From a virus (Duplodnaviria; Heunggongvirae; Uroviricota; Caudoviricetes), in IMG/VR virus record IMGVR_UViG_2529293139_000011: a stretch of DNA of 40,519 bases. One strand, 5' to 3'. The position numbers and the translations under genes were made by a program. Position 1 is the stretch's first letter; every line of letters begins with the position of its first letter. This document shows positions 2,556 through 20,303 of this stretch, in pieces. A model generated the notes under the pieces. The model worked only from the letters and a program-made list of their open reading frames with translations. It was not told the origin of the DNA and ran no database searches.

Positions 2556-2918
2556 ATGTTAAAGCTATTTGCAAAGTACACCTCGATTGGTGTGCTGAAC
2601 ACACTTATACACTGGGTGGTTTTTGGTGTATGTATCTATGCCGCGCATACAAACCAGGCTCTTGCAAACTTCGCAGGTTTCGTTGTGGCTGTGAGCTTTA
2701 GCTTCTTCGCGAATGCAAAATTCACATTCAAGGCATCGACTACAACGATGCGCTACATGTTATATGTCGGGTTCATGGGAACACTGAGTGCTACTGTTGG
2801 ATGGGCTGCTGATAGATGTTCACTTCCTCCAATTGTCACTCTTGTCACCTTCTCCGCCATCAGCCTGGTGTGCGGTTTCGTCTATTCAAAGTTCATTGTC
2901 TTTAGGGATGCGAAATGA
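2556..2918 (+). CDS. gtrA: Bactoprenol-linked glucose translocase (flippase) GtrA
   Basis: 120-aa small membrane protein ([25 protein letters not shown]...), first gene of a gtr operon; its stop overlaps the gtrB start. Confidence 0.85.
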
Positions 2919-3841
2919 AGATATCTCTTGTAGTTCCTGTCTTCAATGAAGAAGAAACGATACCAATTTTCTATAAAGCGGTACGTGAATTCGAAGAGTT
3001 GAAGCCATATGAAGTGGAAATTGTTTTCATAAATGACGGAAGCAAAGACGCTACGGAGTCAATCATTAACGCTCTGGCTGTTTCAGATCCTCTAGTGGTT
3101 CCGCTGTCATTTACACGAAACTTTGGTAAAGAACCAGCATTGTTTGCAGGGTTAGACCATGCAACAGGAGATGCTGTAATTCCAATTGATGTTGACCTGC
3201 AAGATCCGATTGAGGTTATTCCCCATCTGATTGAAAAGTGGCGGGCAGGCGCTGATATGGTGCTTGCTAAGCGATCAGACCGCTCAACCGATGGTCGTCT
3301 GAAGCGAAAAACTGCTGAGTGGTTCTATAAGCTCCACAACAAAATAAGCAATCCAAAGATCGAGGAAAATGTTGGTGATTTCCGGTTAATGAACCGTGAA
3401 GTTGTCGAAAATATTAAGCTCATGCAAGAACGCAACCTATTCATGAAGGGCGTACTGAGTTGGGTTGGAGGAAAGACTGATGTTGTAGAATATGTTCGCG
3501 CCGAACGCGTGGCGGGCAGCACTAAATTCAATGGCTGGAAATTGTGGAATCTAGCGCTTGAAGGGATAACAAGCTTTTCTACTTTCCCACTTCGTATGTG
3601 GACATATATCGGATTTGTTGTTGCAGCAGCTTCATTCTTCTATGGAGCATGGATGATTGCAGATAAAATACTCTGGGGAAATGAAGTGCGTGGTTACCCA
3701 TCGCTACTTGTCTCCGTACTGTTTTTAGGTGGAATTCAATTAATTGGAATAGGCGTGCTCGGGGAGTACATAGGCAGAATTTATATAGAGGTTAAGAATA
3801 GACCTCGTTATATCATAAAGGGCAATAAAAATGATATTTAG
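2915..3841 (+). CDS. gtrB: Bactoprenol glucosyltransferase GtrB (GT2 family)
   Basis: 308-aa [23 protein letters not shown]... with GT2 DXD-type motifs and C-terminal TM helices; overlaps gtrA and the following gene. Confidence 0.85.
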
Positions 3842-5510
3842 GAACAGACATACTCTTTTATCTATATTCGCTATTTTCATGTTGGTATTTCTTGTTGCAT
3901 TAAATACACCAATGCACTCTGATGACTATAGTTATTACTCACGAGGATTGGGGCTTGATGCGCACATTGCAAATTATATGCACTGGAGTGGGAGGATTGT
4001 AGCAGATTACGTATCTACCGGGATGTTGTCGATTGAGGATCATACCCTTAAGGCCCTCGTCAACTCTATAGGTGTAACATCACTTATTGTTCTCATTGCT
4101 GCAATACCTTCTCAATTATGTAAAGTTGAAATCAAACCATTAGTATTAATTGTTGTTTTTGCTTTATATTGGTCATGTAACCCAAATCTAGGACAGAACT
4201 CGTTCTGGGTTGTAGGAAGCGCGAATTACGCCTGGACTACACTATTTGTTTTATGTTTCATCTATTATTTTTTGAAGTGGATTGAAAACCAAAATACGAC
4301 TAAGATAGTTTCGTTATTTATTCTTGGTTTAATAGCAGGCTGCTCAAACGAAAATACCGCTGTAACTATAGCTCCATTGACAGTTGTTGTTGCAATCTCT
4401 TTATTTTACTTTAAAAAAATAAGATGGCAATATGCTTTATTACCAACGATCGGTGTCATTATTGGTTCTGTGACAATTATTCTTTCACCAGGAAACGCAG
4501 CAAGGGCGAAAAATATTGCGTTCGTTGATTGGTATGCAATGCCGTTAGGTGAGAGGCTAATAGAGCACTTTACTCATAGGTTTTGGTTTGCTTTCACATC
4601 CGCATGGCTTGTAATTGGGCTGCTGGTTATCTGTTCAATTGCATCATATGTTTTTTATCGAAGAAAACTACTTTCATTTTCTAATGCTTCATTATTTGCA
4701 TCAATCTCGTTTTTTGGGTGCTTCCTGCTTGCTAATGCCGCATTGGCTGGTGCTCCATACACTCCTCCGCGATCTTTTAGCATAGGGTTCTGTTTCCTTT
4801 TACTTTGCTTCTCCTGCCTTTTCACTTGGATAAATCAACAGGATGGCAAGATAAAAAGCACTTTATCTTACGCTATTTTATTAGTTTCACTAATTAATTT
4901 CATTGGCTCATATTATTTCGTTTATTCCGCTTATAAAAGAACAACGATCCAGCAGACACTTAGGGAGTCGTCGATTAGAGATGGTAGGAGCAATGGTTTG
5001 AAATCTATTTCTATCCCTGATTATTTCTTTACGCATCTTAAGAATTATAACGATAGATATGATAGATTTCATAATGAGGGAAGCTATGGCAGATACTATG
5101 GTATATCCAAAGCGCCATTACAAAAAGCAACCTTTGACTATTCTGGCATAGCATATAAACCAGTTTACAGTAAAGATGTGCCTCTATACGAGCGCGATAA
5201 TATCAAGTCTATTTTCATGTCACCGCAACAACCATTCATCAGTGGGACATTGATACTTGAGATTTCTAACAATATTGATGGGATTTTATCTCGTGATGGT
5301 GGCGTGAAAATCTTCTTACATATTTTAAAATCAGATGGAAGCATCGTTAACAAGGACTTTTTCCCAACTACTATAGAGCTTAATGGTAGATTCTATGCTG
5401 GAGTTGATCTTTCTGGAGTTGATATAAATGACATTAATAGCCTATTGATTGGTACATTCAATATTCATACGCGTCATCGATATACACAAACACAGATAAA
5501 GATTAATTAA
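3831..5510 (+). CDS. Serotype-specific O-antigen glucosyltransferase, GtrC-like (polytopic membrane N-terminal part plus a soluble C-terminal domain)
   Basis: 559-aa ORF in the third position of the gtr operon; strongly hydrophobic N-terminal ~380 aa, AT-rich codon usage typical of acquired gtrC genes; this family is highly variable so exact specificity is unknown. Confidence 0.65.
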
Positions 5511-5513
5511 TAC

Positions 5514-5532
5514 AGGCCCGAAAGGGCCTTTT
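5514..5532. terminator. Hairpin between the convergent gtrC-like and tailspike genes (GGCCCGAAAGGGCC followed by TTTTT on the plus strand)
   Basis: GC stem with GAAA loop plus a T-run directly after the gtrC-like stop; the tailspike stop lies on the other side. Confidence 0.6.
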
Positions 5533-5534
5533 TC

Positions 5535-7409
5535 CTAGCTGTGCAATGAGATATCCGCACTAACGATAGATGCACTTAGATTTACCAGCACCCCTGCCGC
5601 TGTATAGAATCGCAATATAACAGATTTAGCTAAAAACTCAGGTAGAATAATTGGCCCTCCGGTTGAAGCGGGCCTTATAGTACTGCTTCTAATTGCGTTG
5701 ACTGTAACATGACTTTTAAATGCAACAGTAATCTCTCCAGTCCCCGTGATAGTTGCTGATGCTATAAGTTCAGATGAATCAGTGATTGTTATTGCGCTGT
5801 TATTACTAACTATACGTGCAAACCTATCAAAATCTACCAATAAATCGGTGACATTATCCAGGCCCTGGAAGATTGATGCTCTCGGGGTGCTGATGTTATA
5901 TACAGATATTCCTGACGCTGCGGCTGTGAATCTTATAAATGAACTCGTAGAAGCACCGCCATACAATGTTTCTGAAACTCCATCGATAGTTAATTGTGAG
6001 CAACTACCAAGCAAGAAGGCATTGCTGTCACCGCGGCCCAAAATCTTTATATTTGATACTCGCGACCGTTGGCAATTTAAGGCAATTGGCACAAGTCCGC
6101 CAGTTGTAGGAGTAACCCCAGCCTTAACTTCCATTTCAAACGATACGCCATCAATAACCAATCCAGTCAAAAGCGAGCTGTCATCAGGCGTACCAGCTAG
6201 TCCATATACTGCGTTGCCGTCATATTGTATAACTCTAACATGGCCATTTTTTATCTGACATTGATTGATTACACCATCGGCGGTATTAAGTGCTATCCCC
6301 GCATTAGCTCCGTTTATTATGAAATCATCAACAATTACACGGTTACTTTTCCTTATATTAATGCCCCACATGTTCCTGTCATTAATATTGTTATATCTGG
6401 CAATAATATTTTTAACTATGATGTCTTCACAGAAATCGCCGGCTCCCTGTATTACCGATACATAGACAGCATGCCTTCCCAAATCCCCTTTATCTGCATC
6501 TGCTTCAAAATTAACGCCATCAACGATAATTCTCTTACAGCCACCAAGCAGAACTCCATAGCCGCCAGCAACAACATCAGAGTGATAACGATTCCCTCTT
6601 GAATAGGTATCTCTAATAATACTATCTACACATCGTTGCAAGTACACAGATCCCGTATAGCCGTATGTATCCGACCCGACAATCGATATATTGCTGCTGT
6701 CTGTAAAGGTAATTGCATAGGCAACATTGTTTCCCGTAGCTGGCCCATTTGTTATTAAACCGATACAGCGAAAATCTTTTATTTTTACCCCGGTTTTCGT
6801 GTCCGCAAAAAGAGCCTGACCTTTATTGATGTTAGCTACTGAGCCGCCAAACCCTTGTATTACCTGGTAATCATCATTGATAGTTATTCTAGAATCTATC
6901 GTTTGTGCATCTGATATTTGTACATCTTGGCCATTTGAAAGAACTGCTTGAATACTGTTAGCGTAACCATCTGGTCGTCGGTCGATAGCATCTAAATCTA
7001 GCTGCAGTGTCCCGCGGTGGTTTGTGCCTATTAACTGCGAACCGGTTGATGATATTAAATTTTGCTCGAGCTGATCAGGGTCATACTTCAAAACATTAGG
7101 ATAATAAAACTGCTGCGCACCATATGCATCATAAACAGCCATAGAATGGCCTTGCACAGTTACGAACTTGGCAATCTGTCCGTTATATACCGGGTAACCA
7201 GCAGCGTTAATGATGATTGGTTGCGATACAGGAACGTGAGAGCCGTCTTCGTTCTCCACATAAACCTGAATCTGGTTTTCAGGATTTACAGGATCAGTGT
7301 CAATTTTACCGATATAAATTTTGCCATTGGCAACCGCTTTAAAAGAACGAGCCATAGTGAAGAGTTGCGAAGGCATGCTTACCACAACATTTGCGGTGAT
7401 ATCTGACAT
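5535..7409 (-). CDS. Tailspike protein (P22 gp9-like head-binding domain plus a divergent beta-helix receptor-binding domain)
   Basis: ORF 5535-7457; start moved to the ATG at 7409 ([43 protein letters not shown]...), preceded by GGAG; the N-terminal ~110 aa match the conserved P22/Sf6 tailspike head-binding domain. Confidence 0.85.
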
Positions 7410-7433
7410 TTCATTGCTCCAGACGAATGATAT

Positions 7434-7459
7434 GATGCAACCATGATGTGATTGCATAC
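7434..7459. promoter_or_regulatory. Imperfect palindrome (ATGCAACC...TGATTGCAT) in the divergent mnt/tailspike intergenic region; candidate operator
   Basis: TGCAA / TTGCA inverted half-sites ~11 bp apart between two divergent start codons. Confidence 0.25.
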
Positions 7460-7530
7460 CGAAATGGTACTATTGAGTATTTATCCAGTAGGTTACGATG
7501 CCATTCCACCCAACTGGTGAGGCATCAAGG

Positions 7531-7791
7531 ATGTACAGCAAATACGACGAGGCGCAGTTTCACTTGAGACTTCCGCATGAACTCCACGCGAAAATTAAGC
7601 AGCGTGCGAAGATGAATAACAGGTCGCTGAACTCAGAGATAATTGCAGCGATTGAAGAATCATTGGCTAAACAAAGCTCTGCATCAGTTTACATTGACGA
7701 TGCAGAGCGTATGGCAGAACAACAATCTGATATGGTTAAGAAAATTGTCTTTGATACGCTCAAAGAGCTATATAAAAAAGACAGCAGCTAA
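7531..7791 (+). CDS. mnt: Mnt-like ribbon-helix-helix repressor (Arc/MetJ family)
   Basis: ORF 7498-7791; start placed at ATG 7531 after AAGGA; C-terminal part (...DAERMAEQQSDMVKKIVFDTLKELYKK) resembles P22 Mnt. Confidence 0.7.
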   Translation: MYSKYDEAQFHLRLPHELHAKIKQRAKMNNRSLNSEIIAAIEESLAKQSSASVYIDDAERMAEQQSDMVKKIVFDTLKELYKKDSS

Positions 7792-7808
7792 CCATCCGTG
7801 GCTTTCCG

Positions 7809-10544
7809 TTACTTCTGGTTATCATCACTGTTCATCCAGTACATGATGCCTAGCCTTGATATGGTTTTCTTATCTGATTCTGGAAGTGAGTTGTAAAACG
7901 AGCGCCAAGCAGAAGAGCGTCTTACAGTTGTATCAACGATGCTTTCTGGTGCTTGTTTTACTGCCAGCCTTGCTGCTTTCTGGAATTCTGGTGAGCTAAT
8001 TAGCTTTTCTGCAGATTCAATTGATTCAGCGCCGCCCATCGCCCTGATTTTGCTGGCGACTTTTGCCCCAATTTCTGACCCAGCAACAGCACCTACTGCA
8101 CTGAACGGTCCTGACACAGTTGAACCAACCGCAGTGCCAATGCGTTGGGCATGGTTAGCAACAAATTCATTTGCCGCAGTGACGCGATTAAACCGTTTGA
8201 CGAACTCGTTTAGTCTTCCTGTAGTTATCTCGTAAGATTTTGCATCTTTGATAGCCTTTGCGACCTTATATACATCGTTCAGACCTGACATAGTCTCTTT
8301 TGGTAAATGTCGGGCAAGATTGCGCATCTGCCCGTTTGCTAACATGTTTTGATACCAGTCAGCAAACCCCGCAGGATTAAAATCAGCGCCACGTTTTCCG
8401 TTCGAAAGCATATCCCGAAGACCTGTTCCCAGTAGCTCGGTTCTTAGCTTCCTGGACGGCGTGTTTTGCATCAATTCACGAAATCCTTTGGCATCGCCTT
8501 TCGACATTGCCTGTAGTGCTGTAGTTGCTTTGCGAGAAACATCACCGTTCAGCGTTCTGCCAGTTAGATTAATCATTTGCTCTTCCATGCTTTTTCGCAT
8601 CTGAACAAGCCTCTGAGCAACTTCAAAATCACGTAATGCATTTGTCTCTGACAGCGCCGCCTTTTGATCATCGGCGAGCGAACCGTAAAGCCTCGATAAA
8701 GCAGCGCGATCAGCATCTTTATATGGTCCAGAATTCTTATGAAGTGCATCACCAACAAGTCGTCGTTGCTTATTGAGATTTGCATAAGTTAATGCGCCGT
8801 TCTTGCCTGGATTAACTGCCCGAAAGACTCTCTTTTCAATAGGGTCAAGGTTTTTCATCCCGCCAAGATCTTCTGCCACCTGTTTGAGCATTGACCTTGT
8901 TGATGGTGCATCAATTTTTGCACCTGCAGGCATCGCCTTTTCAACATTGCGATAAAGCTGGTCGCTTCGTTTCATCAGCGCAGACATTCTTCCATTGACC
9001 GTATCAATAAACTTGTCGCTCATACCAAGAGCATCTTTTGCACCGGAAACGCGATCAATTATCTCCCCCGCGCCCTGTGCTAGCTGCCTGATTGCTTCAT
9101 TTTCCTGCACCTGTAGAGCAGAACCCGCACGGGACTTGATTGCTTGCTCAACTGCCTTGTATTGCTCGTTCCCGGAAAAGTGTGAAGGGAGTAATGAATC
9201 AACATTAAGCCTTTCAGCAGACTCCAGAACTTCAGCCTGAGGATTGATATCTAGTTCATCAAGCGATGAAGCGAGATTTGGCCTTTTTTGTGCTGCTACT
9301 GTGCGAACGACTTCCTCTGGGTTCCTCGTCGCAGGCGTCATTGGTACACCTTGTGCTACTCTTGCCTCTGCGGCATGAACCGCAGGACTTGTTGCTGCAG
9401 CGGCATCACCGGAGAATGGTGATGCTTCTGTTGCCGCAGTGGTCGCTCTCTGTGCAGATGTTTTATTGCCACTAATTATATTTGATGCACCACGAACACC
9501 ATGGGTAACGCCATTTATCAGGCCATGCGTAGCAATGTTAAGTCCGGCATTAATAGCGGCATTTTCGGCAAAATCACCCCGTTGATTCGCCGCGTCAGCG
9601 AGAGAACCAATGACCATGTTTCCAGCTACTCCTGCTCCAGGAACAAGATAACCGCCTATTGACTCTCCAGCTTGCGCATAAGGGTCTGTCGGTCGATCTA
9701 CTGGACGATAGACATCGTCCAAAACCTTGGGGCCACCAAGCCCCTGGCTGATTGCATTAATCAGACTTGCGCCACCCTGCAATACGTCAAATGGTATGTT
9801 TACCAGACCACGACCAGCCTGCTCTGCAATTTGCCCTGCACTTTGACCACCTGTGAGCCAATCGCCAGCTTGTTGCATCAATGATGGTTCTTCACGTGCT
9901 GGTTCATTATTGGCCTGATTAACTGTTTGTTGCTGAACAGGTTTCGGTGCGACAGAACTTACGGGTTGAGGTGGCTGCTGACTGGCTGCCTGCTGCTCAA
10001 TCTGAGCAAATGGATTATTTGGGTCTGACTGCACACCTGATGCCGATACTTGTTCGGATGACTGTACTTCCAGTTGTGCAAACGGGTTGTTAGGGTCTTG
10101 CTGAGGATGTACCTTTGCAGAGGTGGCGCGCTGTTCGACTGTTGAGTCTGTCACCGGGTCACCCGCCCATTGAGCAAAGCGATCATCAACGTAACCGCGG
10201 CCTTCAGGTCCTGGCGTATATTCACCACGCTTTGCCTTCATAACGTTGCCGGGACCGTCGTGATAAGCCTGAAGAGCGTCACGCCAGTTACCAAACTGCT
10301 GGTACATCTTTGCCAGATAGCGCGCGCCAGCGTCAGCCTGATATTCGGGGTTTTGCATTTGCTCATCGGTATAACCCATATCACGCCATGTCCCAGGCAT
10401 GACCTGAGTCAATCCTACAGCCCCGGCGGAGCTTACTGCGGCAGGGTTGTAAGAAGACTCCTTGGCACCCAGTGCAGTCATCAACCCTTCTGGCACACCG
10501 TAACGTGCGCCAGCCTGCTCTAACAAATCACGGTAATTAGCCAT
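7809..10544 (-). CDS. Ejection (DNA-transfer) protein, gp16-position homolog, with an N-terminal lytic transglycosylase (SLT) domain
   Basis: 911-aa ORF, last gene of the ejection-protein block; N-terminus contains SLT-like motifs ([26 protein letters not shown]); middle part is Gln/Pro/Ala-rich and low in complexity. Confidence 0.65.
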
Positions 10545-13884: not shown

Positions 13885-15302
13885 TACTCAATCCTTATCT
13901 GGCAGCCAGACAGAGTGACAGGTGACTTCGTGATAATGCGCAATTTGAAGCCGACATTTTTCCTGATGCGCCCTACTCGCTTCCACAAAACACGTTTGTC
14001 GTAAACGAACGGTTCATTCTGCTCAATCATCTGCTCACGCCCGTAATTGATGCCGTCAGTGGTTGCAGAGAGGAACAGGCGGTCGGCGTACTGAGCTACG
14101 CCAGTGGATGATTCCACCTCCAGATCGAAGCATCTGGCGTTATCCGCTTTGAACAGTGGAGTAAACAGCAGGTGTTCCTGTTGCTTGTCGTACTGGCTGC
14201 TGATATCGAACTGCAGTTTCCCGGTAACAGATTCCAGCTTATCGCCGCACGTTATCTGATTGCCTTCGTAAATGAAGTCGATAGCGCGGTACACATCGTC
14301 ATATAAGCCTGTTTTCAGCACACACCATTGCGGACCATTGGCGCTTGAAGATGCGTCGTACACGAGGACGTGGCGCGGAAGGTGGATAATCAGCAGTTCA
14401 TGCGCATCAAATCGCAGCGATTCCATCACACCATCAGCCAGTTCATCAGCAGTGTAGGAGCGGAGGATTTTCTCAATGCTCGCGCTGGCGATTGGTGATA
14501 CCTGACCGGAACCGATGATGTACACAGACGGCGCACCTGTTGCCGGATTGCTGATGAACGCATAAGAATCGGCGAACGGCGTTTTGCAGTAAGTTCCGGC
14601 AATGCCTTTCTGCACCATCAGCGATGGTTGTGCAACATACAAAGCAGCCCCAACAGTGGTTGCACCAGTCAGGGAGAAATATTCAATCGTCGACGAACCA
14701 AAGCAGACTATGAAGTCTCGCCATGTACCGATGCCGATGATTCCGTCAGGCTGAGACTCTGCGCGATATTGTGCGCTGTAGCGGTCAGGATGCGATTCGT
14801 CTTCAAGGTCAGTGATAAACCATGAATCAGTGCCGTCTTTTGACCACGCATAACGCCCACGTAAACGAGTAATGTCGCGAACCGAACCTAACTCATACTG
14901 CGTGAATCCGCTGTCTGTAGGCCAGTTTGAGACGGTTTTAACCGTGCCATCATAGCGGTATTCGACCAGTTGCCCGTTAACACCTACCGCCTGTGATGTC
15001 CGACCATGTGCCATTGATACGCGACCACTTCCGGCAACATCACCGACTTCACTTTCGCCTTTGTACAGCTTGCCACCACACACGCGATAAACAGCATTCT
15101 GCGCCATGTTGTACTCGACGCCACGCGATACGCCGTTCACATCAGAACGTTTGGCAATGCCCGGGAATGAGCGAAGATATCCGCTGCTGTTCAGGATTTC
15201 TTTGGGTGTAGCCAACATATTCACTGGCAGATAGTCGATATAGTCGGCGTTTCTGAAGTCTTTGCCGACACCTTTCATAAGCGGAAGTTGCTGAATAGGC
15301 AT
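13884..15302 (-). CDS. Tail hub protein (gp10-like)
   Basis: 472-aa ORF, same length and position as P22 gp10. Confidence 0.75.
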
Positions 15303-18176: not shown

Positions 18177-20303
18177 TTAACTCGGCATTAAGTCTGCCGG
18201 TGACTGTGGTGGTGACTGGAATTGCTGTTGTTGTGACTCGGCGACATCTTTCAGCAGGCGTATTGCCTCCATCACTGCTTTGTCATCGATGTTTCTGGCT
18301 TGAGCCAATTTATAGACAGTGTTTGCCTGACTCTCCATCGCATCCTGCTGGGCAGTAAATGCTTTGATTTGAGTTTGAGCAGTTTCGTTAGTTGCTTTTT
18401 GCGCTTCTGCCTGCGCTGCTACCATTTGCGCCTGAGCGAGAACCATTTCAGGATTTGGCTGGCTTTGTGCTGCCATTTGCGCCTGTTGAACAATCTGCTG
18501 CTCTTTCTCATTGCGTGGTTTTGCAATACCAGATATCAGCAGTTGGTTGCGGTTGTACTCTTTGAAGTCATCAAGGCCTTCGCCATCGATATTGTCCAGA
18601 ATAATACCCTGAATTGCCGGGCGCATTGGGTCTGTTGGAAGCATAGAGCTAAGGACATTTGTCAGTACAGAAACCGTTGCATCACGTCGTGCTGTGTAGC
18701 TTGGTCCAACATCAACCGTCACATCGTATCGACCGACAGAAAGGTCATTTAACGCAACAACAGCCCCTGTTTGCCTGTCAACAACCTGTGCGCTCAGGAC
18801 AGCGATATCATCACTTCCATCTTCGTTAACGATGCGCACTTCACGTTCTGAACCGTACACTTCACGCGCCATTGACAGCCATACTTCACCAGCGCGTTTA
18901 AGACTTTTCGCCATATTGTCCAGATAGATAAACGAAGCCATATCTGCTCTGTTCATCAAGTTGTTAACCGTTTCCTGAGCAATATTACTTGGCATCTGCT
19001 GCATGGCCTGACTGCCGCCTGTAACCTCCTGAATATCAGCACTGGTTTGCTGTAGTAATGCAGCCAATGCCTGATTCATAACCGCAGGCTGTGTATATCC
19101 TGCCGGGGTAGCTCCAGCGATAATGTTGCCAGATTTATCTCTCACTTCGCGCAACGGCAAGAACGCTGGGCGTTTCTTGTTGCGAGCCTCCCAGTGCTTC
19201 TCAAGTCCACGAATTTGCTCCATGCCAACTATAGGGATCTGACCGGGGTCTTGTGCTGCAGTATCAGCCAGCATTGAAACCTGAAGGTTGTACAAACGCT
19301 GTGGATCCATTGCTTTTGCAATGTGCCCTTCGACACGCTCAATGTCATCAATGAACCAGCGTTTTCCATAAACCGGGATGAGGGGGATATGCTCACCAGG
19401 AATACGTCGAGGTTTCTCAAGGAAACCATCACCATCCACTACGGATACATACACACGACGGCGCTTCACTGAGCGCCTTGCCACTTCCTGAAATCCAGCT
19501 ATTGCCAGTTCATCTTCAATATCTTCAACCTGATCACTGTCGTATGTTGCAATCTCTCCAGTGATTGGATGTCGATAACTGATGACGTCAACAGACTCTT
19601 TACGAACTTCGTAATACTTCGCTATGTAAATAACATCTGCATCAAACCAGTCATATTCCCAACTGGTCATAGACGTTACATCCAAAGAAGCAGGAGGTTT
19701 CTTTCCGTATTCAGCCTCATATTTTTCAGGTGACAACGAATACATGCAGAACGCCCACAACGCGTCAGATTTGTCGTACTTCTTAGCGTCAGGGTCAAAC
19801 CACACAGAGCGCGACGGGTCGTATATTGGTTCAATAGCAATGCGCTGACGATCGTCCATGGGGTCGTATTCATTGACCAGCATCGACGTCAAACGGAAGC
19901 AACCGAAACCACCAGTAGCAGCGTCGTCAAATGCATTATCGCAAGCCTCACCGCCATCAGTTTCTTCGTAGTCAGCACGGAACAGACCATTTAATTTATT
20001 GGCTAACTCTTCGCTTGCCTCTCTGTCACCAGGACGAAACTTAACGGTGATTCTGTTATTGCGGTATTCTGCAATGATGCGGTTAAGTTCAGTTGCTACC
20101 TTATTGATTTCAAACTTAGGATACTTCTCGAACTGCTCATCAAGCTTAGTCCCAGCCGCCGTTGCTCCTTCCCATTGACCTCCGGGGACACGAGCAAACC
20201 TCGTAGCTTCAATGCACTTTTCGCGCACTTCCTGCTGTGGAGAATAGGCGCGGTCAAACCTGAGCATGATCCGCTCATGTTTTTTCTCTAATGTCTCTGC
20301 CAT
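18177..20303 (-). CDS. Portal protein
   Basis: ORF 18177-20375; start moved to the ATG at 20303 (MAETLEKKHERIMLRFDRAYSPQ...) just after the terminase stop, giving 708 aa; aligns with P22-type portal proteins (e.g. KRRRVY, GEHIPLIPVYG) and has a long C-terminal helical barrel. Confidence 0.85.
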   Translation of the reverse strand: MAETLEKKHERIMLRFDRAYSPQQEVREKCIEATRFARVPGGQWEGATAAGTKLDEQFEKYPKFEINKVATELNRIIAEYRNNRITVKFRPGDREASEELANKLNGLFRADYEETDGGEACDNAFDDAATGGFGCFRLTSMLVNEYDPMDDRQRIAIEPIYDPSRSVWFDPDAKKYDKSDALWAFCMYSLSPEKYEAEYGKKPPASLDVTSMTSWEYDWFDADVIYIAKYYEVRKESVDVISYRHPITGEIATYDSDQVEDIEDELAIAGFQEVARRSVKRRRVYVSVVDGDGFLEKPRRIPGEHIPLIPVYGKRWFIDDIERVEGHIAKAMDPQRLYNLQVSMLADTAAQDPGQIPIVGMEQIRGLEKHWEARNKKRPAFLPLREVRDKSGNIIAGATPAGYTQPAVMNQALAALLQQTSADIQEVTGGSQAMQQMPSNIAQETVNNLMNRADMASFIYLDNMAKSLKRAGEVWLSMAREVYGSEREVRIVNEDGSDDIAVLSAQVVDRQTGAVVALNDLSVGRYDVTVDVGPSYTARRDATVSVLTNVLSSMLPTDPMRPAIQGIILDNIDGEGLDDFKEYNRNQLLISGIAKPRNEKEQQIVQQAQMAAQSQPNPEMVLAQAQMVAAQAEAQKATNETAQTQIKAFTAQQDAMESQANTVYKLAQARNIDDKAVMEAIRLLKDVAESQQQQFQSPPQSPADLMPS

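Follow-up and report, generated by a model that had tools for sequence, protein, structure and literature searches.

Positions 7410-7808 of the window, by which we mean the whole 40.5-kb stretch of DNA analyzed, are best explained as a complete, functional and self-regulating orphan Mnt cassette of new operator specificity, a reading to which we give a probability of roughly 55%. The cassette would represent the variant with mnt alone of the "ant moron", the variable segment found in P22-like phages from the last ejection gene to the tailspike gene. In the proposed mechanism, Mnt would be made from the prophage via a rightward promoter, antisense to the late operon, and would form an Mnt-type tetramer that binds a single operator, CATACCGAAATGGTACT (7455-7471), read by strand residues Q9, H11, and R13 (H6, N8, and R10 in P22 Mnt). 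This operator would abut the -35 element of the mnt promoter, downstream of a possible second rightward promoter, and the likeliest direct effect of binding would be control of mnt's own transcription. Pant, the strong divergent promoter silenced by Mnt in P22, has degenerated here, its cargo genes arc and ant are missing, and the late transcript would have to cross a site occupied by Mnt, located 46-62 bp ahead of the tailspike ATG.

In the window, which is a prophage of the P22-like type (Lederbergvirus), mnt lies between two genes of the opposite strand:

5535-7409, minus strand: tailspike gene, ATG at 7407-7409, with a P22-type head-binding N-terminal domain (Pfam Head_binding, 3.8e-67)
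7531-7791, plus strand: mnt homologue, 86 aa, matching Pfam Arc and Repressor_Mnt and PDB 1mnt and 1qey
7809-10544, minus strand: gene for a gene-16-like ejection protein with an N-terminal lytic transglycosylase domain (Pfam SLT, 3.3e-25), convergent with mnt

The ejection gene shows synteny with Sf101, P22, and ST64T, and mnt, which runs antisense to the late operon and is flanked by genes 16 and 9, has the genomic position of P22 immI (mnt - Omnt/Pmnt/Pant/Oarc - arc - sar - ant). The preliminary description had placed an Mnt homologue about 120 bp from the divergent tailspike start and had noted the absence of arc, ant, and sieA, all of which was borne out. The intergenic region spans 121 bp (7410-7530), and on the other side only 17 bp separate the mnt stop codon from that of the ejection gene, which leaves no room for sieA. 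Searches of the whole 40.5-kb window by tblastn (E<=0.01) gave no match to P22 Arc, Ant, SieA, or orf59a, nor to the Ant proteins of CUS-3, GF-2, and ST899, KilA and Rha of JEP4, or Rha and Pid of BTP1. An antirepressor encoded elsewhere in the window was ruled out by this panel, for which nothing was found at E<=0.01. Other hallmarks of immI were missing as well. With only 121 bp between mnt and the tailspike start, there is no divergent arc-ant pair; no strong Pant overlaps Omnt/Pmnt (no minus-strand promoter of at least 9/12 in 7000-8200); and the arc-ant junction that encodes the sar antisense RNA is absent. An Rfam search of 7200-8100 (E<=1) returned no known RNA family. The layout is that of the mnt-only ant moron of the ST64T/L type, in which mnt alone of the immI genes is found in the interval from gene 16 to the tailspike gene and adjoins the latter in divergent orientation. 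The cassette thus lacks arc, ant, sar, sieA, and orf59a and has a degenerate Pant, unlike P22 immI, and either derives from the mnt-Omnt-Pmnt part of that region or has a common origin with it.

This arrangement is common and already described. Over 7300-7900, the window shows 98% DNA identity to Shigella phage Sf101 and to IME10 (97-98% for the latter), both of which carry an essentially identical cassette (gp14 in Sf101). In their records mnt is mis-annotated, as a long ORF, as a "chromosome segregation ATPase" or a "partition protein ATPase", and mnt is mentioned in neither the Sf101 paper nor the Anderson typing-phage paper. Sf101 has oac where the window prophage carries gtrA, gtrB, and DUF6056. 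The gene also abuts the tailspike gene in VSe13, Gally, ST160, ST64T, and Proteus phage Brookers, and JEP4 has the same layout with a longer gap. The cassette of the window was found in 295 of 5,426 complete E. coli genomes (~5%) and in more than 200 IMG/VR contigs, with three loci only, in Escherichia and Citrobacter, among species-representative genomes. Mnt-only ant morons were reported in ST64T, ST104, and Para1, with the moron wholly absent from Sf6 (Villafane et al. 2008, PMC2629481), and phage L has the same mnt-only layout (Zaworski et al. 2021, PMC8022706). The comparison with Sf6, CUS-3, and HK620 that had been proposed at the outset was run: Sf6 is without the moron, HK620 has annotated mnt and ant remnants, and CUS-3 has ant and two mnt genes but no arc. 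In the morons of ST64T, ST104, Para1, L, ST160, and SE1, as in the window, mnt is divergent from and abuts the tailspike gene without arc or ant. The ST64T-type morons also keep the operator, up to a few bases from the junction, and hold mnt under purifying selection. They differ in operator class (see below) and in that they usually contain an extra small ORF and, at the 3' end of mnt, a late-strand terminator, whereas mnt is the only gene of the window moron.

The product of mnt is, as judged from its sequence matches, a true member of the Mnt family, with an N-terminal ribbon-helix-helix (RHH) domain and a C-terminal Mnt-type tetramerization helix. It matches Pfam Arc (1e-14, residues 18-60 of a 97-aa ORF) and Repressor_Mnt (3.3e-14), as well as PDB entries 1mnt (3.4e-19 over residues 6-79) and 1qey (1.7e-8 over residues 56-84). 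These entries are the two solved pieces of P22 Mnt, 1qey being the Mnt tetramerization domain. Both domains that define the family (PF03869 and PF11423) are therefore represented, the Arc-like RHH domain and, by sequence match, the C-terminal coiled-coil tetramerization domain, and the two-domain protein is 49% identical to P22 Mnt. Weak matches to Pfam HicB and FitA-like_RHH span the shared RHH fold only. The alternative that the product is the RHH antitoxin of a toxin-antitoxin pair was rejected, as no co-transcribed toxin gene is adjacent; the stop codon of the ejection gene, 17 bp away, leaves no place for a plus-strand toxin gene after mnt.

By comparison with its relatives, the true start of mnt is ATG 7531 and not the upstream ATG 7498. 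The former aligns with the N-terminus of P22 Mnt, has GAGG (7519-7522) 8 nt upstream, and is the start called by PGAP. The longer, 97-aa ORF from 7498 is the annotation of the Sf101 record; its extension is not open in ST160 or P22, and its ATG falls within a -10 element. In the recognition beta-strand the window Mnt reads QFHLR where P22 Mnt reads HFNFR, with the P22-numbered changes R2>Y, H6>Q, and N8>H and an unchanged R10 (1mnt alignment). In P22 Mnt, strand residues R2, H6, N8, and R10 contact the operator, and the corresponding residues in the window are Y5, Q9, H11, and R13. A differing DNA-reading strand implies a separate specificity class.

The intergenic region was aligned with those of relatives on the annotated P22 record, in which Omnt, Pmnt, Pant, and Oarc are marked, and the following elements were assigned in and around it:

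7403-7436, plus strand: candidate extra rightward promoter, either CTGACA-17-AATGAT (7403-7431) or an extended -10 element, TGaTATGAT (7428-7436)
7435-7457, minus strand: predicted stem-loop AUGCAAUCA / UGGUUGCAU (tailspike-sense RNA), arms at 7435-7443 and 7449-7457
7455-7471, no strand: candidate Mnt operator CATACCGAAATGGTACT, core TACC-N5-GGTA at 7457-7469, positional homologue of the 17-bp P22 Omnt
7473-7499, plus strand: putative Pmnt-equivalent promoter, -35 TTGAGT (7473-7478), 15-nt spacer, -10 TACGAT (7494-7499)
7497-7526, plus strand: inverted repeat GATGCC / GGCATC, 6-nt arms with 100% complementarity, flanking the mnt leader

The inverted repeat overlaps the mnt Shine-Dalgarno sequence GAGG and is also present in ST160, ST64T, Gally, and VSe13.

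We infer that 7455-7471 is the Mnt binding site, mainly from the way in which protein and site covary. In P22, Omnt (AGGTCCACCGTGGACCT) is followed by the ATTG of the Pmnt -35 region, and 7455-7471 lies in the same register relative to this ATTG, ending 1 bp before the -35 hexamer. The corresponding site is AAGACCACGGTGGTCTT in ST160 and ST64T, GAGACCACTGTGGTCTT in Gally, CATACCGAAACGGTACG in JEP4, and CATACCTAAATGGTACG in VSe13. Among the roughly 250 loci gathered, operator class tracks the Mnt beta-strand without exception. HFNFR goes with GGTCCAC-N-GTGGACC (~30 distinct loci, with arc adjacent in nearly all), QFNLR with GACCAC-N-GTGGTC (~80 loci, arc in none, the center taking all four bases), and QFHLR with TACCGAAAYGGTA (~100 haplotypes, arc in none). 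The window, with its QFHLR strand and TACCGAAATGGTA in place of the P22 sequence GGTCCACGGTGGACC, thus belongs to a sister class of the QFNLR group, which is that of the ST64T-type morons. In the literature searched, the pairing of QFHLR with TACCGAAAYGGTA has not been described before. An Mnt operator of about 17 bp with two-fold symmetry, adjoining the -35 element of its own promoter, is accordingly recognizable here by position and covariation; its palindrome is weaker than that of P22, with symmetry limited to 4+4 positions in the window and reaching 6/8 in JEP4-type copies. The motif TACC-N5-GGTA occurs once in the window, against 0.11 copies expected by chance. A second operator elsewhere in the prophage was considered and rejected, the sole other match, at 18440, having three mismatches and being within chance expectation. 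Two damaged copies offer a further view of the pair, as protein and site decay together in both: in one (L212), an IS element adjoins the operator and the strand carries R13I, and in the other (L217), codon 5 is a stop codon and the operator is altered by GG>AG.

The sequence data also indicate that mnt is functional and under strong purifying selection. The gene was intact in about 190 of the 193 copies retrieved, and 55 distinct 86-aa alleles gave a pN/pS of 0.145 overall and of 0.035 for codons 1-45, the DNA-binding half; the value for mnt of the sister QFNLR class is 0.14. Over codons 1-31, the window (Sf101) and VSe13/JEP4 subtypes are 97% identical at codon positions 1 and 2 and 68-77% identical at position 3. 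A recombination break between these two subtypes lies near mnt codon 32, beyond which the C-terminal helix differs. Among 84 haplotypes, nucleotide diversity (pi) is 0.014 in the intergenic region and 0.098 at mnt third positions, a difference of about 7-fold. The -10 element is invariant in this set, as are 11 of the 13 positions of the operator core, the other two segregating. The low intergenic diversity could stem partly from frequent recombination at the module boundary and not from constraint alone; the CUS-3 record labels this stretch "boundary sequence".

These values bear on the suggestion that mnt is a decaying relic, left without function after loss of arc and ant and drifting toward loss, which we regard as highly improbable. 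The absence of arc, ant, and sieA and the degenerate Pant hexamers would fit such a history, as would the annotated mnt and ant remnants of HK620, and the possibility was left open for phage L (PMC8022706). A gene adrift would nonetheless not be expected to show a pN/pS of 0.035-0.145 (0.14 in the sister class), more than 98% intact copies, an operator and -10 element that are near-invariant beside third codon positions about 7-fold more variable, or a protein-operator covariation held across three classes. In the sense of a non-functional remnant, the relic proposed in the preliminary description is therefore contradicted by the selection on mnt, the ~190/193 intact copies, and the conserved operator. 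Since a repressor that acts only on itself would have no selectable function of its own, selection of this strength implies that the Mnt cassette has some further output.

On the rightward strand, the Pmnt-equivalent was assigned by alignment to the annotated P22 Pmnt and is probably the mnt promoter. A consensus promoter scan that recovered Pant at 11/12 and Pmnt at 10/12 in P22 left it below threshold in the window because of its spacer length. A 15-nt spacer usually makes for a poor promoter. Both hexamers hold the same positions in the JEP4/VSe13 subtype, where the spacer is 17 nt. The extra rightward promoter upstream of the operator is speculative: CTGACA-17-AATGAT scores 9/12, and 2.3 such matches are expected by chance in the 1.2-kb region. 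The TATGAT of this candidate is invariant in the 84 haplotypes, and the element is confined to leaders of the type with a 15-nt Pmnt spacer. Were it in use, the operator would lie at about +12 to +28 after the start, a geometry that would give direct negative autoregulation. From the place of the operator beside these elements, mnt probably regulates its own transcription.

On the leftward strand, the idea that Mnt regulates a tailspike promoter found no counterpart in the sequence. The same consensus scan detected no leftward promoter in the window, in ST64T, or in VSe13, and no minus-strand promoter or terminator was predicted in 7410-7808. The old Pant hexamers read ATGGCA-15-TAAATA in the window and TCGGCA-17-TATATC in ST64T. 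Given this degeneration and the negative scan, there is no strong tailspike promoter for Mnt to repress, and the tailspike gene, as far as predictions go, lacks a dedicated promoter and comes last in the late transcript. A weak leftward promoter may persist at the old Pant position. Mnt could then be kept to repress this descendant of Pant, from which, if left unrepressed, the prophage would express the tailspike gene and transcription would continue into the convergent O-antigen modification genes. Mnt would thereby gain a function open to selection; its operator occupies the place at which Omnt overlaps the start of Pant in P22, and the old -10 position still shows A/T-rich remnants with a TG upstream (TGGATAAAT in the window, TGGTTATATC in ST64T). 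However, a scan able to find P22 Pant at 11/12 saw nothing on the minus strand of the three phages, the critical -11A or -7T is lost, and the hexamers are spaced by 15 nt in the window, making this explanation rather unlikely.

The intergenic region was also noted to contain an imperfect palindrome, which is real, with arms lying within 7435-7457 (7434-7459 in the preliminary description), but is better assigned to RNA than to Mnt. The two 9-nt arms are 89% complementary, with one mismatch, and the element lies 14 nt upstream of the tailspike Shine-Dalgarno sequence GGAG (7417-7420), overlapping the candidate operator by 3 bp. Taken alone, the single sequence does not fold beyond chance (z = -1.05, 37 of 200 shuffles folding at least as well). 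Variation among relatives is more telling. Of the 84 haplotypes, six carry 7441 C>T and four carry 7451 A>G, each of which mends the single mismatch, and a divergent Escherichia sp. prophage (L216) has both arms changed, to ATTCAAT/ATTGAAT. A hairpin occupies the equivalent place in at least five unrelated sequence families of P22-like phages. The JEP4/VSe13 type, which shares the same Mnt strand, has the P22-type hairpin CCGUAGC..GCUGCGG instead, and Sf6, BTP1, and the type B family have other hairpins at equal distance from the tailspike Shine-Dalgarno sequence. In the alignable set of P22-type and type B sequences, 96.6% of cells pair, and all changes are one-sided, to or from G-U. A G-U pair of this kind can form in tailspike-sense RNA alone, the opposite strand having a C-A mismatch at that position, a pattern that fits an RNA on the tailspike strand. 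In our reading, 7435-7457 is an RNA stem-loop of the tailspike mRNA leader, apparently conserved in structure and not in sequence across nearly all P22-like phages. The palindrome was accordingly rejected as an Mnt operator: it is not at the Omnt position, phages with the same Mnt strand have unrelated hairpins in its place, and its wobble pattern fits RNA. The site homologous to Omnt, and covarying with the strand, is 7455-7471 instead.

Transcription across the locus offers Mnt a further possible target. No late-strand terminator was predicted between the ejection gene and the tailspike gene, and late transcription would hence pass antisense through mnt and over the operator before it reaches the latter. 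Mnt bound at 7455-7471 might act as a roadblock or modulator of late RNA polymerase entering the tailspike gene, setting its amount or timing, or might exclude superinfecting phages with this operator. In every case the operator separates the tailspike gene from the rest of the late operon; in the window, where no terminator intervenes after gene 16, nothing else gates read-through; and immunity systems typically diversify into specificity classes. An effect of the ant moron and its repressors on gene 9 read-through has been suggested (Villafane et al., PMC2629481). The adjacency of operator and tailspike gene is equally explained by common descent, however, and P22 has the same geometry, with no such effect of Mnt established there. 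Late polymerase of P22-like phages is moreover antiterminated, and a repressor present in few copies would be titrated by the genomes as they replicate. We therefore consider an action of Mnt on late transcription to be rather unlikely.

In the rightward direction, no plus-strand terminator was predicted within 400 nt downstream of mnt, and the mnt transcript would thus run antisense into the ejection gene. The key product could then be the RNA itself, reaching into the 3' end of the ejection gene and acting in exclusion, with Mnt only tuning its level. A precedent is STnc6030 of BTP1, a highly expressed lysogenic antisense RNA that excludes BTP1 (Owen et al. 2020, PMC7067206). It is expressed from the same place, the gap between ejection and tailspike genes, and in the same rightward orientation, antisense to the late operon. 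BTP1 is without mnt, however, the product of its locus is described as a non-coding RNA, and there is no sequence similarity between the two. An RNA-based function would also leave unexplained the strong amino-acid selection on Mnt, above all on its DNA-reading strand, and many relatives have a terminator or more genes after mnt. We judge it very unlikely.

A role in trans would be another way to account for the selection on mnt. Mnt may be kept to silence the ant promoter of superinfecting relatives with the same operator, guarding the lysogen from antirepressor-mediated induction, as resident Mnt is established to do to superinfecting P22. A prophage of E. coli PK5074 in which IS elements interrupt both the tailspike and the ejection genes retains an mnt gene that is 100% identical, which is consistent with such a function. 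The targets that it supposes did not appear, however. Arc is adjacent in none of the ~200 copies of the QFHLR and QFNLR operator classes. An IMG/VR search that depended on the P22 arc leader sequence found either orphan operator next to a P22-like arc leader in 0 cases among the matches listed, with 88 for the P22-type control. Also among the matches listed, 44 operator copies outside the Pmnt context belonged to unrelated phages of high GC content and had neither RHH nor Ant genes close by. On these grounds (no arc-leader matches, and off-context copies only in unrelated phages among the matches listed), QFHLR-class operators beside arc or ant in other phages were rejected, and protection in trans is distinctly unlikely to be what maintains mnt.

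A broader and more speculative view, which we hold to be rather unlikely, is that orphan Mnt cassettes form a self-standing regulatory or immunity module of P22-like phages and are not leftovers of immI. Mnt made by the prophage would bind the operator in the tailspike leader and so gate the passage of late transcription to the tailspike gene, in the resident genome as well as in incoming phages that share the operator. Pressure to escape would have split the module into at least three non-cross-reacting protein/operator classes, two of which never occur with arc-ant, and the arc-ant genes of P22 would have been added later as cargo of an older switch.

Taken together, these results favor the reading of 7410-7808 as a functional orphan Mnt cassette. 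The novelty is modest, namely, a functional Mnt member in an already-described mnt-only arrangement, which sharpens the question of what orphan Mnt does. The analysis corrects the start codon and product name in the Sf101 and RefSeq phage records, and sets the candidate Mnt site apart from the conserved stem-loop of the tailspike leader. To our knowledge, the only job of Mnt, a textbook repressor, is to silence the P22 antirepressor. Two whole Mnt specificity classes nevertheless occur only without an antirepressor and yet are strongly selected along with their operators, pointing to a second role for Mnt. With its operator, promoter region, and one-gene cassette defined, this second role would be directly testable.

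Recombination has acted inside mnt itself, the gene of the 86-aa Mnt repressor homologue between the ejection and tailspike genes. One DNA-binding half of Mnt was found with at least three different C-terminal helices, namely, a P22-like helix, a JEP4-like helix, and a third that ends in ...TMYSNNKKET. The following features of the window concern this gene and its flanks.

~7625 (codon ~32), recombination break within mnt
7497-7502 and 7521-7526, perfect 6-nt inverted repeat GATGCC...GGCATC flanking the mnt leader
7435-7457, minus strand, tailspike-leader stem-loop, with equivalents in P22 (L004), ST64T (L090), Sf6 (L219), BTP1 (L215), CUS-3 (L221), L216, and L220

In the E. coli PK5074 prophage (L354), IS1 interrupts the tailspike gene, and an IS3-family element lies beside a truncated ejection gene. 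Despite these IS-damaged neighbours, the mnt cassette of this prophage is still 100% identical to that of the window. Two other cassettes are themselves damaged, protein and site being lost together: in L212, an IS3-family element lies directly beside the candidate operator and the Mnt beta-strand carries R13I, and in L217 (Citrobacter), mnt has a stop at codon 5 and the operator is altered by GG>AG. Mnt homologues are also labelled "partition protein ATPase" or "chromosome segregation ATPase" in Sf101 (NC_027398 gp14) and in the RefSeq records of P22, ST160, SE1, and epsilon34, and the Sf101 gp14 CDS begins at an upstream ATG, giving 97 aa; both this naming and this start are annotation errors.

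The inverted repeat of the mnt leader overlaps the mnt ribosome-binding site and is also kept in ST160, ST64T, Gally, and VSe13, and it could form an mRNA hairpin or serve as a second protein site. On the other side of the intergenic region, the palindrome noted in the preliminary description corresponds to the tailspike-leader stem-loop, which is distinct from the operator. In nearly all P22-like phages examined, a stem-loop precedes the tailspike Shine-Dalgarno by ~15-25 nt. At least five unrelated sequence families of this structure are represented among the P22-like phages compared, and its G-U pairs hold on the tailspike-sense RNA only. The stem-loop could serve as a site of processing or stability; alternatively, it could be connected with what the CUS-3 record annotates as a "boundary sequence".

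The tailspike boundary also harbors an insertion in several of the compared loci.

~500-600 bp left of the operator, mnt strand, HNH-type endonuclease ORF of 166-179 aa (L106, L121, L140, L170, and L218)

This ORF, also found in E. coli SZQ1 and EC06, is inserted so that it separates a replacement tailspike gene from a kept tailspike-start stub, which retains its leader and operator. The arrangement resembles insertion of a homing endonuclease at the boundary of the tailspike module.

The prophage end carries a further module.

1009-1080, 1209-2402, and 2556-5510, prophage end adjoining a tRNA gene, with an integrase followed by two ORFs, one gtrA-like and one family-2 glycosyltransferase-like, and by a DUF6056 membrane protein

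The latter three form an O-antigen modification cassette, assigned from a domain scan for the DUF6056 protein only and, for the gtrA-like and glycosyltransferase-like ORFs, from ORF size and neighbouring annotation in E. coli PK5074. In contrast, Sf101 has an O-acetyltransferase at this place.

Two phages differ in what they carry at the mnt position.

L221 (CUS-3) 5144-5673, two tandem mnt genes
L215 (BTP1, LT714109) 14022-14178, intergenic gap at the mnt position, with TATAAT, GGAGG, and a 23-codon ORF in the mnt orientation

One of the two CUS-3 genes encodes the P22-type HFNFR strand, and a P22-type operator is absent from the 7-kb CUS-3 locus. The BTP1 ORF encodes a hydrophobic peptide, MERDLLNFVFLIFGLVVGKLLFA. 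STnc6030, the antisense RNA for superinfection exclusion of the BTP1 lysogen, is described as spanning this gap, an overlap that follows the description rather than transcript coordinates (PMC7067206). The 23-codon peptide might be involved in the published exclusion phenotype.
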